Source: an uncultured Bacteroidota bacterium | GTDB lineage: Bacteria > Bacteroidota > Bacteroidia > Chitinophagales > Chitinophagaceae | Direction of reading: 5' to 3' | Length of the DNA stretch: 64,000 bases | Assembly: GCA_963730425.1 (NCBI GenBank) | Contig: CAVSRV010000011.1 | Location: 240,092-304,091, forward strand | Shown: in pieces, positions 3,487-48,168 of the stretch | Layout: each line of letters opens with the position of its first letter | Numbering within the stretch: position 1 is the first letter of the stretch | Program-made: the position numbers and the translations under genes | The notes under the pieces: model-generated | Told to the model about the DNA's origin: nothing | The model's input: only the letters and a program-made list of their open reading frames with translations | The model's database searches: none

Positions 3487-3511
3487 GCAATGCTTAAAAT
3501 TCTAGTATGGG

Positions 3512-3653
3512 GTAAGGCAAGTATGGGAGTATGGGAGTATGGGAGTATGAAAACTATATGATTCGATTTGCTGATCAATTATCAATAATAAAGACTTAAA
3601 GCGTTTGGTAATGATTTCATTCCCATACTCCCATACTCCCATACTTGCCTTAC
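3512..3653. repeat. Inverted pair of tandem 8-mer arrays (element C; GGGAGTAT units) between convergent tatC and adk
   Basis: Perfect 33-bp inverted repeat gtaaggcaagtatgggagtatgggagtatggga, 3512-3544 / 3621-3653, with a 76-bp spacer. The right arm includes the adk stop codon. Confidence 0.95.
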
Positions 3654-31205: not shown

Positions 31206-32258
31206 TTAAAGTTGATTGATGAGATTTGTGAGGGCTTTTACACTTTCGAGAGGTAGGGCATTATATAACGAAACCCTATAGCCGCCTACGCTTCTGTGTC
31301 CTTTTACACCAATCACATTTTGGTCTTTGCAGGCTTCCAGGAACTTTTTTTCCAATTGGGAGTCTTTAATCAGGAAAACCACATTCATGCGGCTGCGGTC
31401 TTCCTTTGATACAGTTGGTTCAAATCCTTCCTTTGCATCCAGGGTTTTGTAAAGCAGATCGGCCTTTGCCTTGTTAATTTTTTCAATTGCTGAAACACCA
31501 CCCTGTTTTTTTAACCAGCGAAGGGTAAGCATACAAACATAAATGGCAAAAACCGGTGGTGTGTTAAGCATGGATCCTGCCTCGATATGCTGGCGATAAT
31601 CCATCATGCCGGGAAGTTTGCGGTTCACTTTTCCCAGAATATCCTTTCTTATAACAACCATGTTTACACCTGCTGCGCCAATATTTTTCTGGGCGCCTGC
31701 ATAGATCAGCGCAAATCGGTTAAAATCTGTTTCATAACTCAGGATATCACTGCTCATGTCGGCCACCAGCGGGATATTCGTTTCAGGGATGGAAAACATT
31801 TCCGTTCCTTCAATGGTGTTGTTGGTAGTATAATGAAAGTAAGCGGCGTCTGGCGGGATTTTAAATTCTTTAGGGATATAGGTATAATTTTTATCTTTTG
31901 ATGAAGCAACCACTTCTACATTGCCAAACAATCGGGCTTCTTTGATGGCTTTAGAGCCCCAGACTCCGCAATCGAGATAAGCAGCTGTTTGATTTTCGTT
32001 GAGAAGATTCATTGGTACCTGAAAAAACTGTGTGGTTGCGCCTCCATGAAGAAATAATACATCATGGTCTGCATCCAGTTTCATAAGTTCCTTTGCAAGC
32101 AGTACGGTTTCATCCATCACCGATTGAAACAACGCGGTCCTGTGTCCGATTTCAAGAATGGAAAGTCCTGTATCTCTAAAATTCAAAATACCCTTAGCAG
32201 CTTCTTCAAAAACTTCTTTTGGTAAAATACTGGGCCCTGCGTTGAAATTGTGTATCAT
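31206..32258 (-). CDS. serC: Phosphoserine aminotransferase
   Basis: HNFNAGPS, NNTIEGT, DMSS, YAGAQKNIG, NTPP and GHRSVGG motifs. Confidence 0.96.
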   Translation of the reverse strand: MIHNFNAGPSILPKEVFEEAAKGILNFRDTGLSILEIGHRTALFQSVMDETVLLAKELMKLDADHDVLFLHGGATTQFFQVPMNLLNENQTAAYLDCGVWGSKAIKEARLFGNVEVVASSKDKNYTYIPKEFKIPPDAAYFHYTTNNTIEGTEMFSIPETNIPLVADMSSDILSYETDFNRFALIYAGAQKNIGAAGVNMVVIRKDILGKVNRKLPGMMDYRQHIEAGSMLNTPPVFAIYVCMLTLRWLKKQGGVSAIEKINKAKADLLYKTLDAKEGFEPTVSKEDRSRMNVVFLIKDSQLEKKFLEACKDQNVIGVKGHRSVGGYRVSLYNALPLESVKALTNLINQL

Positions 32259-32313
32259 CTATTTCTATCTTGGAGACGCAATTTACGACAATTCGTTGGC
32301 TGTCGGCGTTATT

Positions 32314-32775
32314 TGGTTTATGGTTGATGGTGAATGGTAGATGGTTTTTGATTTAAATAATTAATAAATCCCGTTATCAATTTAATATTTGATTCCAATA
32401 TCTTACTTAAACTATTGTAAGAACCCTGATCGATAATATTAGTCATAAGTGCTACACTCAATAATGTTTCCAATTCATAGGCCGAACCCCTGGAAATATA
32501 TAAAAATTGCAATGAGTCTTTTTTATGGTTTCTTCCAAGACCTTCCGCAAAGTTGCTTGGAATTGATACGGCAGCTCGTCTAGTTTGTGATATTAAACCA
32601 AATCTTTCTTCAGGAGGGTATGATTTCGTTAATAAATAGATTTGTTTCACAGTTTCCATAGAAAAAATCCAAACTTCTAATTTTTTATAACTTATCATAA
32701 TGATATCCTATTTTATAGTTTTTCTCATAAACCATAAACCATAAACCATCTGCCATACACCATATGCCATAAACC
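32314..32775. mobile_element. Candidate cassette: four-helix-bundle gene between inverted heptamer arrays (element G)
   Basis: Left arm tggttta tggttga tggtgaa tggtaga tggtttt (32314-32348); right arm tcataaa ccataaa ccataaa ccatctg ccataca ccatatg ccataaa (32725-32773). The right arm ends 2 nt from the stop codon of the upstream gene. Mobility is inferred, not shown. Confidence 0.5.
32318..32698 (-). CDS. Four helix bundle protein (23S rRNA-IVP / Avd-like family)
   Basis: YKKLEVW, FGLISQTRRAAVSIPSNFAEG, FLYISRGSAYELET. The last codons (PSTIHHQP) are read through the repeat arm. Confidence 0.93.
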   Translation of the reverse strand: MISYKKLEVWIFSMETVKQIYLLTKSYPPEERFGLISQTRRAAVSIPSNFAEGLGRNHKKDSLQFLYISRGSAYELETLLSVALMTNIIDQGSYNSLSKILESNIKLITGFINYLNQKPSTIHHQP

Positions 32776-33741
32776 TCAATCACAATCCCTCCCCAAAATC
32801 TTCCCATTCATCCATTCGAGATTTAATCTCTGATATTCCTTTTGTTCAGAAATTGAAAGGCTGTCGTTTGCAAGATGATCAAGTGCGGGTTGCCCGGCAT
32901 TCACCCATGCTGTATACCAGCAGGATGCCACAGCAAAAATTGACTGGCGCATGCGGCGCTCAATCATATGATTTAATTTTCTTTCATAGAGAGTTGCATA
33001 AGAGGTAGAATATTGTTTCAGGATTTTTCCCTTGCGCTCCTCAAATGCATATTTCTGATCGGGTCTGAAAAGACTGCTGATTTCTTTTTCACAACGTAGC
33101 ACTGTGTCTGCAGCAGCCGCACTCTCCAGGATCCTATCCCAGATAAATGAAGAAAGATCCGGGATATAAACTGCCTTACCAATAAAAAAATTCCAATCTG
33201 TTTCCGCCAATAATTCAGGAATCCTGGATTCCCAGAATGCGTGTATGCCTTCCTGATGTGTCATCTGGCCATTGTGATTGGAACATACATGCAGCGGAAC
33301 ATGCGCATCGGCCACATAGTGACCCAATTCAGCGGCATTTTTGAGGATGGCCTGTTTGTCTTTTTCACGGAAAGCCTTTGTGAGCCGACTCATCATAATC
33401 TGGATCCACCAAGGAACGATTCCGTAATGCTGTAAACTGTCGGCCGAATATTTCTGAATGGCCGATTTATAATCTCTGGGAATAGCAGGGAAGGGGTAAA
33501 CTCCATAATGGTCAATATCCAGAAAATGATGTGCACCCTCGCTGGCTACCATATACCTTCTTTTATCCGGATCCACCGCGTGTTCGGAAAGGAAACTTAT
33601 AGAAGGCTTGAAAAGAATCATCATCTGCGGCGGCAGAAGAAAAACAGCATAGTAATTTATTTTTTCATGCATGTAAAAACCCCAGCAGTAGGAACGGTGC
33701 GATAAAAGTATCAGGATGATGATGTAGCAGAGCTCCTTCAT
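32776..33741 (-). CDS. S1/P1 nuclease / zinc-dependent phospholipase C family protein
   Basis: Mature N-terminus WGFYMH, AVDPDKRR, LGHYVADAHVPLH and IHAFWES motifs. Confidence 0.88.
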   Translation of the reverse strand: MKELCYIIILILLSHRSYCWGFYMHEKINYYAVFLLPPQMMILFKPSISFLSEHAVDPDKRRYMVASEGAHHFLDIDHYGVYPFPAIPRDYKSAIQKYSADSLQHYGIVPWWIQIMMSRLTKAFREKDKQAILKNAAELGHYVADAHVPLHVCSNHNGQMTHQEGIHAFWESRIPELLAETDWNFFIGKAVYIPDLSSFIWDRILESAAAADTVLRCEKEISSLFRPDQKYAFEERKGKILKQYSTSYATLYERKLNHMIERRMRQSIFAVASCWYTAWVNAGQPALDHLANDSLSISEQKEYQRLNLEWMNGKILGRDCD

Positions 33742-33762
33742 AAAAGAGAGTTATCTACTAAT

Positions 33763-33894
33763 CGTTGGCTGTTGGTCGTTGGCGGTTGGCTGACTTCAAT
33801 AAAACATCCAAAATAAATTTATGTTTCTAATATACCAATACCACTTATAGTGTTTTAATATTTACGGCCAACTGCCAACGGCCAACCGCCAACG
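33763..33894. repeat. Inverted pair of heptamer arrays (element H; NGTTGGC / GCCAACN)
   Basis: cgttggc tgttggt cgttggc ggttggc (33763-33790) and gccaact gccaacg gccaacc gccaacg (33867-33894); 76-bp AT-rich spacer. Confidence 0.9.
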
Positions 33895-43642: not shown

Positions 43643-44860
43643 TTATTTCTTTCTTGGCGGCCCCTGAGGAGGTCTGTTGTCAGGCCTGTTATTTGGTCTG
43701 TTATTAGGCTTGTTATCGCTTCTGCGTTGTTGCGGAGGTCCTGGCCGGTGATTCTGCTTTTTTTTGCGGTCAGCACTATCCAGCGTTTTCAAACTGAATT
43801 GTCCCGTAAGATCAACATTCACCAGTTCTTCCTTCGGTTTACCATTCACTTCAACAGCACCCAGATCGTCCGGGATTATATTCTGCTGATTGAGTTTTTT
43901 TATCTGTTTAACTCTGTCAATCAAAAGAGGGTATTGTTTGCTGCTGTCAGGCAATACATACCACATCAGGTTTTTAAAAATGTCTTTTTTAATCAGCAGG
44001 GCTGTTCCCTTGGCTACCTGCAGTGTATCTGCATTATCAGGAAATTGCTGCAGCGCATCCAGGTAAGTATCAAGTTCGTAATTCAGGCAGCATTTTAAAC
44101 GGCCGCACTGACCGCTCAGTTTACTCTGATTGATGGAAAGATTCTGATAGCGGGCAGCAGTAGTGTTAACTGATTTGAAATCTGTGAGCCATGTAGAGCA
44201 ACAAAGTTCACGTCCGCAGCTGCCAATACCTCCAACTTTTCCTGCTTCCTGACGTGCGCCGATCTGGCGCATTTCAACTTTTACGCGGAATTCAGAAGCG
44301 AATATTTTAATGAGCTCCCGGAAATCAACACGGTCGTCTGCTATATAATAGAATGTAGCTTTACGGCCGTCTGCCTGAATTTCCACCTGCGACACTTTCA
44401 TGTCAAGCTTAAGTTGACGCGAAATGGCGCGCGAACGAATCACGGCTTCCTTTTCGCGGGCTTTGTTTTGTTTTAATAGATCCAGGTCACGGTCTGAAGA
44501 GCGGCGAAGTATCTTTTTCATGTCTGGATGAAATTCATCCACACTTTTCTTCTTCATTTGTATCCTGACCAGCTCGCCCGTTAAGCTTACCGTACCAACA
44601 TCAAAACCACTAACACCCTCCACGCTCACTATTTCTCCTTTTTCGAAGATCTGTGTTGTTGTATTACGATAAAAATCCTTACGGCTACCCTGACTAAAAC
44701 TTATCTCCATCACCCTGCATTCCGAAGCAGGGTCGTGAATCGGTAGATTTGAGAGCCAGTCATACACATTCATTCTGTTGCAACTTCCTGTACCACAGCT
44801 TCCATGACTCTGGCATCCACCTGGCTTGCCGCCGGCAGTGCCACAATTAGAACATCCCAT
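43643..44860 (-). CDS. ricT: PSP1/RicT (YaaT) family Fe-S protein
   Basis: Cys-rich N-terminus, RVDFREL, EMRQIGARQEA, CGRELCC and SGQCGRLKCCLNYE; downstream of holB. Confidence 0.88.
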   Translation of the reverse strand: MGCSNCGTAGGKPGGCQSHGSCGTGSCNRMNVYDWLSNLPIHDPASECRVMEISFSQGSRKDFYRNTTTQIFEKGEIVSVEGVSGFDVGTVSLTGELVRIQMKKKSVDEFHPDMKKILRRSSDRDLDLLKQNKAREKEAVIRSRAISRQLKLDMKVSQVEIQADGRKATFYYIADDRVDFRELIKIFASEFRVKVEMRQIGARQEAGKVGGIGSCGRELCCSTWLTDFKSVNTTAARYQNLSINQSKLSGQCGRLKCCLNYELDTYLDALQQFPDNADTLQVAKGTALLIKKDIFKNLMWYVLPDSSKQYPLLIDRVKQIKKLNQQNIIPDDLGAVEVNGKPKEELVNVDLTGQFSLKTLDSADRKKKQNHRPGPPQQRRSDNKPNNRPNNRPDNRPPQGPPRKK

Positions 44861-48082: not shown

Positions 48083-48168
48083 TGGTATAAGGTATATGGT
48101 GCATGGTCTATGGATTGGTTTTATTATTTAAATGAGCTACCATATTCTATTTACCATATACCATAGAC
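48083..48168. repeat. Degenerate inverted pair of heptamer arrays (element I; TGGTATA / TACCATA)
   Basis: tggtata aggtata tggtgca tggtcta tgg (48083-48113) and taccata ttctatt taccata taccata gac (48138-48168), abutting the comF stop. Confidence 0.75.

Follow-up and report, generated by a model that had tools for sequence, protein, structure and literature searches.

We describe a 465-bp unit (32311-32775) in a 64,000-nt stretch of DNA from an uncultured member of the Chitinophagaceae (the window: positions 240092-304091 of contig C11, CAVSRV010000011.1, in genome G000, an assembly that is 91.5% complete). The unit consists of one gene of the PF05635 family placed between inverted arrays of a clade-specific 7-nt word, and it follows the stop codon of a co-directional gene without a gap. 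The locus is probably a cassette of the intervening-sequence type, a kind of element known from rRNA, that resides here outside rRNA in a messenger context. The parts of the cassette and its immediate neighbours are as follows, with 5′ and 3′ given in the orientation of the gene:

32318-32698, minus strand: PF05635 gene, 126 aa, PF05635 (23S_rRNA_IVP) profile match
32725-32775: 5′ arm, ~7 units of GGYNTAT (CCATAAA-type on the plus strand)
32699-32724, minus strand: leader of 26 nt from the 5′ arm to the ATG, without a TAnnTTTG box
32311-32348: 3′ arm, ~5 units of TGGTNNA on the plus strand (ACCATNN in gene orientation)
32259-32310, minus strand: spacer of 52 nt from the 3′ arm to serC, holding the GTAAATTGCG box
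32776-33741, minus strand: upstream co-directional gene, S1/P1-nuclease-like, weak Pfam match
31206-32258, minus strand: downstream gene, phosphoserine-aminotransferase-like (serC-like, Aminotran_5), Pfam match

The encoded protein matches the PF05635 profile over residues 5-109 of 126 (E=3e-33, 114.7 bits with a cut-off of 33.8), and is similar to a solved member of the family, XCC0516 (PDB 2GSC), over residues 4-112 (E=2.7e-20). Alignments place it in clade A1 of this four-helix-bundle family. Its core motif RxxxSxxxNxxE (R41-S45-N49-E52), described for PF05635/TIGR02436 proteins (PMC3936711), is invariant throughout clade A. Comparison of the window gene with its sister-species ortholog gave a ratio of nonsynonymous to synonymous substitution rates (dN/dS) of 0.08, and the values for cassette proteins were 0.03-0.12 wherever dS could be estimated; the cassette protein is therefore under purifying selection.

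Tandem Repeats Finder (TRF) reported the 5′ arm as 7.1 copies of CATAAAC with a period of 7 (32726-32775), and the 3′ arm as 4.7 units of TGGTTGA (32314-32346). Together they form an inverted repeat (32315-32355 / 32735-32775) with arms of 41 nt that are 83% complementary, and in the computed RNA fold of the 495-nt region the arms are paired with each other in both the minimum free energy and the centroid structures (z=-2.5). The arm score of the cassette is 20, compared to a 99th percentile of 13.5 for 1048 similar-sized genes of the same genome. The 5′ arm abuts the TGA (32776-32778) of the upstream gene, and the PF05635 gene ends within the 3′ arm, which takes up its last nine codons and its TAA stop. 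A preliminary description of this stretch had reported an Avd-like 126-aa gene between inverted heptamer arrays, with its last codons inside the downstream array; the profile match, TRF and the inverted repeats bear out both points, and the strand is corrected, the gene lying on the minus strand.

The arrangement recurs around the relatives of this gene. All six PF05635 genes of G000 lie between inverted arrays, as do all nine in the sister species G057 (OY969813.1), which supports the earlier cassette interpretation. The arm units of the six G000 cassettes are GGTTTAT, TATGrGw, GTGTGAGA, AAAGTAAAAAT, GTGTGGTA and an imperfect repeat of AATGTGG type. One G000 cassette, L004 (C3:1364426-1364891), immediately adjoins the 5S end of an rRNA operon, and the orthologous spot in the sister species is gene-free and carries solo arrays from two other families. 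For the other species of the genus, the arms are above the 99th percentile of the same 1048-gene null at 26 of 29 loci; one of the three below threshold, L072, has arms, which were overlooked owing to a miscalled start. On a wider scale, 76 loci from more than 10 phyla were usable (Bacteroidota, Acidobacteriota, Nitrospirota, Planctomycetota, Verrucomicrobiota, Proteobacteria, Clostridia, Chloroflexi, Patescibacteria and Melainabacteria), and at 62 of them the arms exceed the 99th percentile of displaced-window controls. The arm period across phyla is 7 in 48 cassettes and 8 in 8. The upstream neighbour is co-directional in 53 of the 62 cassettes, and the median distance from its stop codon to the outer edge of the 5′ arm is 6 nt. 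By far the longest arms seen, ~200 nt of GTGAGTG/GTGAATG heptamers, belong to L211 (Vreelandella sedimenti NZ_JACCGK010000017.1). Soil metagenome contigs confirm the presence of the cassette in run X1, with no joints or empty alleles among these contigs.

The protein clade predicts the arm unit. Mapped onto a 43-protein tree, the arm family undergoes three changes, which is the minimum for four states, compared to at least 12 changes in 500 shuffles. Clade A1, which includes the window protein, is associated with GGTTnAY, A2 with AAGCnT/AACGC, B1 with TATGrG, and B2 with the 8-mers AGTrTrrG. In orthologous cassettes all units have changed in parallel in both arms, for example from GTGTGAGA to AGTATAAG. 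A need for stop codons in all frames was considered as the cause of the 7/8-nt period and rejected, as several units (GGTTTAT, TCTCACAC) hold no stop. A pentameric ring protein probably recognizes the cognate heptamer array, one unit per subunit, which would account for both the mapping of clade to unit and the fixed period of 7-8 nt.

Genes and arrays also go together at the level of whole genomes. Six genomes without a PF05635 gene (three of the genus and three of other genera, GC 0.40-0.54) carry 36-76 period-7/8 arrays per Mb, with no inverted pair in 1.18 Mb, while seven genomes with such a gene (GC 0.37-0.47) carry 150-460 arrays per Mb, with 8-52 inverted pairs per Mb in six of them and none in 140 kb of the seventh, G117. 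Simulated DNA gives ~50 TRF rows of period 7-8 per Mb. The two groups are fully separated by arrays per Mb (exact rank test, 6 vs 7, p ~0.001, calculated by hand), for genomes that represent few lineages.

The arrays of G000 are not confined to the surroundings of PF05635 genes. Period-7 arrays are ~8-fold more common than in Markov-simulated DNA (344 vs 42 TRF rows per 2 Mb), and 803 of the 1117 arrays with period 7 or 8 fall in the non-coding 13% of the genome. With gaps of ≤500 nt, mostly 0-150 nt, 164 inverted array pairs were counted, and ~160 of these hairpins have no gene, compared to the 6 PF05635 genes. By unit, the hairpins belong to the families TATGrGw (54), AAGCyTw (42), AGTrTGrG (32), GGTnnAT (14), AAAGTAAAAA (8) and others. 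The preliminary description had noted five gene-less sites of this architecture in the window, and TRF recovers all five:

999-1125 (arms 999-1035 / 1083-1125): gene-less hairpin, TATGrGw family
2467-2575 (arms ~2467-2494 / 2542-2575): gene-less hairpin, AAGCyTw family, beginning at a stop codon
3504-3645 (arms 3504-3549 / 3621-3645): gene-less hairpin of the 8-mers AGTATGGG
33762-33894 (arms 33762-33790 / 33864-33894): gene-less hairpin, CGTTGGC family, just upstream of the S1/P1-like gene
48083-48165 (arms 48083-48113 / 48138-48165): gene-less hairpin, GGTATAn / TACCATA family, as in the arms of the cassette

The CGTTGGC family of the fourth hairpin recurs in the sister species, where it builds the arms of the orthologous cassette. 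At 43670-43716 the window also contains 3.9 copies of a 12-nt tandem repeat, AGGCCTGTTATT, which is unrelated to the 7/8-mer hairpins.

The hairpins of G000 prefer the 3′ ends of genes: 70 are in convergent, 81 in tandem and 13 in divergent neighbourhoods, and they start a median of 3 nt from a stop codon, compared to 37 nt from a start codon. This preference, together with the large excess of hairpins over genes, speaks for the hairpins being host features, such as slippage-prone 3′-end stabilizers or terminators that arise independently, with PF05635 genes as passengers that survive or insert there. The excess of heptamers in bacteria has been attributed to polymerase slippage (a 2007 survey, as cited in PMC4692102), and the empty hairpins hold no gene remnants. 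However, the six gene-free genomes, GC-matched ones included, lack such hairpins and have arrays at chance level, the unit family tracks the protein clade, the same layout occurs in more than 10 phyla with unrelated units, and the intervals described below that lack a cassette in other genera are mostly free of arrays. We therefore consider a purely host origin of the hairpins improbable.

The hairpins have a consistent polarity. The 5′ arm has more G than C in 127 of 162 hairpins of G000 (127 vs 35), on both strands, and in 56 of 60 cross-phylum cassettes (56 vs 4); the purine fraction is 0.64 in the 5′ arms and 0.36 in the 3′ arms. Although 42 hairpins of the AAGCyTw family are present in G000, the assembly contains no gene of clade A2, the type cognate to this unit in the sister species (L038/L039). 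Either such a gene sits in the missing 8.5% of the genome, or the hairpins outlive their gene.

The loops of 87 empty hairpins were searched for PF05635 remnants by tblastn with 15 proteins; 2 hits reached E≤0.1, compared to 1 hit in the reversed loops, a control-level result that lends no general support to the empty hairpins being decayed cassettes. One candidate for a seventh cassette (C3:372075-372555, with a 391-nt loop) was rejected, as it has stops in every frame and no homology. At L040 in the sister species (G057:C1:3094565-3094837), a gene of the window type is truncated at residue 88 and joined directly to a 3′ arm of CCGTCAAC type, and this structure resembles a stage of decay on the way from a filled cassette to an empty hairpin. 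Most loops are unique, and only a handful of the 87 resemble one another. Three AGTATGGG hairpins with a loop of ~87 nt are 74-77% alike (G000 C9:39794-39948, C10:81356-81493 and C3:547942-548086), and one hairpin pair is 96% alike, loops included; C10:72746-72970 and C3:312470-312738 are also among the loop-sharing hairpins. These shared loops indicate that some empty elements were copied as whole units. The proposal that the empty pairs are non-autonomous derivatives of the cassette is thus upheld in part: same-family pairs at orthologous sites (described below) and the truncated L040 agree with it, while the lack of remnants and the uniqueness of most loops do not.

The insertion site in the window is informative about gain and loss. 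In 19 other genera the S1/P1-like gene is directly followed by serC, at a distance of 38-274 nt; none of these intervals contains a PF05635 gene, and most show a promoter-like box for serC. Besides the window, a cassette at this site is found only in G057 and G134, both of the same genus. The arms are of the window-like GGTnnAT type in G134 and of CGTTGGC/GGTTTGC type in G057, and the sequence just beyond the 3′ arm is conserved. The empty intervals of the other genera are mostly without any array. In three empty alleles (L016, L019 and L028) the nuclease stop is immediately followed by short arrays or hairpins of other kinds, such as the GATGATA units of L016, which suggests that the position just after the S1/P1-like stop codon is colonized repeatedly.

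A site-by-site comparison of the sister genomes G000 and G057 found three cassettes in common. At three sites, a cassette in one genome is matched in the other by an empty hairpin from the same unit family whose loop measures 3-8 nt (L041 and C3:605310-605460; L042 and C10:41498-41572; G000 cassette #2 and G057 ~109.8 kb), at one site by a short related hairpin, and at two by arrays of another unit family. Apart from the window locus, five sites have a gene in one sister and just an array hairpin in the other, and the three same-family pairs are among these. A related cassette, with 77% nucleotide identity, occupies a different locus in each of two sister species, the nearest match of G000 cassette #2 in G057 sits ~20 kb away from the orthologous position, and window-type proteins that are 65-75% identical occupy other contexts in other species. 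No target-site duplication was visible at the filled/empty junctions compared, in two genomes that have diverged to synonymous saturation. This saturation makes the direction of events unreadable and blurs the details of the junctions. For L002 (G000 C3:585192) and L041 (G057:C1:92550), which lie at different loci, dS is 0.93, whereas the flanking genes and the other orthologous cassettes are saturated (dS >1.8); this noisy estimate from a small gene hints at a more recent transfer or movement. Taken together, the comparisons give good support to the cassette proposed earlier, as a discrete arm-gene-arm unit subject to gain and loss.

The neighbour described earlier as an S1/P1 nuclease gene is indeed present, but its Pfam match is below threshold (E=1e-5, 26 bits vs a cut-off of 29.5 bits), and we refer to it as S1/P1-like; the protein, whose gene usually precedes serC, is conserved in 81 out of 121 genomes from the family. 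The GTAAATTGCG box in the spacer (plus strand, ~32277-32286) is conserved in the sister species and aligns with the TAnnTTTGC boxes of the empty alleles (L007 compared with L008 and L009-L036), and it is probably serC's own promoter.

We hypothesize that the PF05635 gene would lack a promoter of its own and be transcribed by read-through from the S1/P1-like gene. In the transcript, by homology with the rRNA elements, the purine-rich 5′ arm would pair with the pyrimidine-rich 3′ arm to form an imperfect stem of ~40 bp. RNase III would cut this stem, as it does in the homologous 23S rRNA intervening sequence of Coxiella, and the cleavage would free the RNA of the cassette from that of the host gene. 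Recombination or gene conversion could carry the gene from one hairpin of its unit family to another, with the arms serving as homology and with no need for a transposase or reverse transcriptase; such arm-guided movement would be a parsimonious account of the filled and empty sites.

The preliminary description had instead proposed a spread possibly through an RNA intermediate, with a reverse transcriptase or recombinase acting in trans. A related idea is that the locus is the remnant of a diversity-generating retroelement (DGR) that has kept its Avd homolog. The homology of the family to Avd (PMC10053308) and the position of a promoterless gene inside a structured transcript are in keeping with retro-mobility. 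However, neither a reverse transcriptase (PF00078) nor a Y1 HUH transposase (PF01797) was matched in the 91.5%-complete G000, no template/variable repeat pair was found at the locus (no direct repeat >22 nt in 32200-32900), and the cassettes are abundant in many phyla regardless of retroelements. Copying through RNA is accordingly very improbable, and the proposed reverse transcriptase finds no counterpart in this assembly. The lack of a Y1 HUH match in the same 91.5%-complete assembly also led us to reject mobilization of the type used by repetitive extragenic palindromic (REP) sequences and their REP-associated tyrosine transposases (RAYTs).

Several observations weigh against the intervening-sequence explanation. 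RNase III (PF14622, TIGR02191) was not found in the G000 assembly, although it is present in four genomes of the genus. Its usual neighbour gene is also missing at high identity, and an assembly gap is therefore the likely cause. RNA runs were searched for the window and for a cassette of goat-rumen Clostridia, and neither was found in them. The 200 nt upstream of the window gene's start contain no TAnnTTTG box, as was noted earlier, and the strict box is absent upstream of all 15 cassettes tested; but only 10% of genes have one within 100 nt as background, and its absence is therefore weak evidence. The genome-level co-occurrence of genes and arrays rests on lineages that are not fully independent, and the loops of empty hairpins, as described above, hold no gene remnants beyond the control level. 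The arms of orthologous sites can belong to different families (GGTTTAT in the window vs CGTTGGC in G057, and likewise at the L039 site and the site of cassette #4), and recombination through arm homology alone is therefore insufficient. Finally, pairing of the arms is 0.83 in register and 0.826 with a shift of one unit, which rejects the arms as exact mirror copies and places their complementarity at the level of the unit family only. The complementarity could therefore be a by-product of opposed binding arrays instead of a selected stem.

This last point leads to the main rival for the mechanism, in which the arms are opposed protein-binding arrays with incidental complementarity. The arms would be binding sites akin to terminal inverted repeats and not an RNA stem, and each protein clade would bind its own heptamer array on the purine-rich strand. 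The protein would seed, expand or spread its cognate arrays, and the ~160 empty hairpins would be dispersed sites, comparable to REP doublets (REPINs) and their RAYT. Several lines of evidence are consistent with this: the mapping of clade to unit, the absence of an in-register advantage, the fixed polarity of the arms, the universality of the 7-8 nt period irrespective of sequence or GC, the chance level of arrays in gene-free genomes, and the few empty hairpins that are near-copies including their loops. XCC0516 is moreover reported to be a homopentameric toroid (Lin 2006, as cited in PMC4990558). On the other hand, the subfamily is not known to bind nucleic acid or to have catalytic activity, a helical bundle of 13 kDa matches no known fold of a nuclease or recombinase, and the AAGCyTw hairpins persist in the G000 assembly without their cognate clade-A2 gene. 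In Coxiella, moreover, the stem is indeed formed, and RNase III cleaves it (PMC4990558). We thus regard this alternative as possible, but not as the likelier outcome, and retain the intervening-sequence explanation.

The cassette is closest to the 23S rRNA intervening sequences of Leptospira, Coxiella burnetii, Xanthomonas and Brucella. Both have a PF05635 protein, an open reading frame (ORF) in the loop of an inverted-flank stem, heptamers at the 5′ end, a size of ~430-490 nt, and a sporadic distribution consistent with horizontal acquisition. The intervening sequence of C. burnetii is 428 nt long, carries the S23p ORF in a stem loop and is excised by RNase III; two or three tandem GACAGAT heptamers lie upstream of its ORF, the 5′ RNase III cut is at the first repeat, and the GACAGAT copy number differs between strains (PMC4990558). 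GACAGAT also forms the arms of the Chitinophagaceae cassettes L164-L166. The suggestion that the window cassette belongs to an undescribed family therefore needs qualification: ORF-bearing 23S rRNA intervening sequences are the same kind of element, and heptamers have been noted in the Coxiella one. Unlike these, the window cassette lies between protein-coding genes (S1/P1-like and serC-like) and not in helix 9, 25 or 45 of 23S rRNA, and is accompanied by ~160 gene-less hairpins of the same unit families. In contrast to the Coxiella ORF, which is decaying and probably untranslated, the window protein is under purifying selection, and excision of the window cassette by RNase III, established in Coxiella, is here suggested by homology.

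Arrays of tandem 7-nt units, intergenic and numbering hundreds per genome, have been described in Xanthomonas (GGGAATC), Nostoc and Calothrix (GGGGA(T/C)T and the short tandemly repeated repetitive (STRR) sequences) and Beggiatoaceae (TAACTGA). These published arrays have been treated as G-quadruplex-forming or regulatory, with no connection drawn to PF05635 genes, whereas the units found here are mostly not G-quadruplex-forming. Rehm et al. listed 186 GGGAATC arrays for Xanthomonas campestris, of which 70 form inverted pairs, and made no link to PF05635 (PMC4692102). The 70-75 convergent inverted pairs of Xanthomonas vary in length between close relatives (PMC4692102), and array #15 of the supplementary table sits 6 nt past bccP and extends over the start of XCC0516 (PMC4692102).

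The cassette resembles REP/REPIN-RAYT systems in that a single- or few-copy gene is flanked by an inverted short repeat, this repeat recurs as tens to hundreds of scattered intergenic hairpin doublets, for the most part just past stop codons, and each gene clade has its own cognate repeat family. It differs from them in that the gene encodes a 13-kDa four-helix bundle and not a Y1 HUH (IS200/IS605-like) transposase, and in that the repeats are tandem 7-8-mers of variable number, with mostly unique loops, and not a fixed 20-40 nt palindrome. With Avd of DGRs, which is pentameric and basic and works with nucleic acid, it shares a homologous four-helix-bundle fold; unlike Avd, the gene stands alone between heptamer arrays, with no reverse transcriptase and no template/variable repeats. 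Like MITEs (transposable elements of miniature size with inverted repeats) and foldback elements, the latter with arms of tandem short repeats, the hairpins are short, non-coding and dispersed; unlike these, they show no visible target-site duplication and no identifiable transposase, and the copies are not near-identical but differ in loop and unit number. Members of the PF05635 family have also been noted inside cas operons (PMC3936711). Our literature search found no work linking PF05635 genes outside rRNA to heptamer arrays.

The PF05635 family has been known since the early 1990s and structures have been solved, but to our knowledge it has no established function outside retroelements, and we know of no established cause for the heptameric arrays catalogued in Xanthomonas, cyanobacteria and other bacteria. 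The window locus and its relatives link the two. The rRNA intervening sequences would then be a special case, in which a cassette landed in rRNA. For annotation, the arrays can be mistaken for CRISPR-like repeats, and the cassettes split operons. More speculatively, PF05635 ring proteins may read tandem 7-nt words in a sequence-specific manner, one word per subunit, and may create, maintain or spread their cognate inverted arrays; we put this forward tentatively. If true, one protein-repeat partnership would explain the ORF-bearing rRNA intervening sequences, the bacterial excess of heptamer repeats (Xanthomonas GGGAATC, cyanobacterial STRR) and the Avd-like proteins outside retroelements, and it would define a minimal class of mobile or semi-autonomous element without a transposase.

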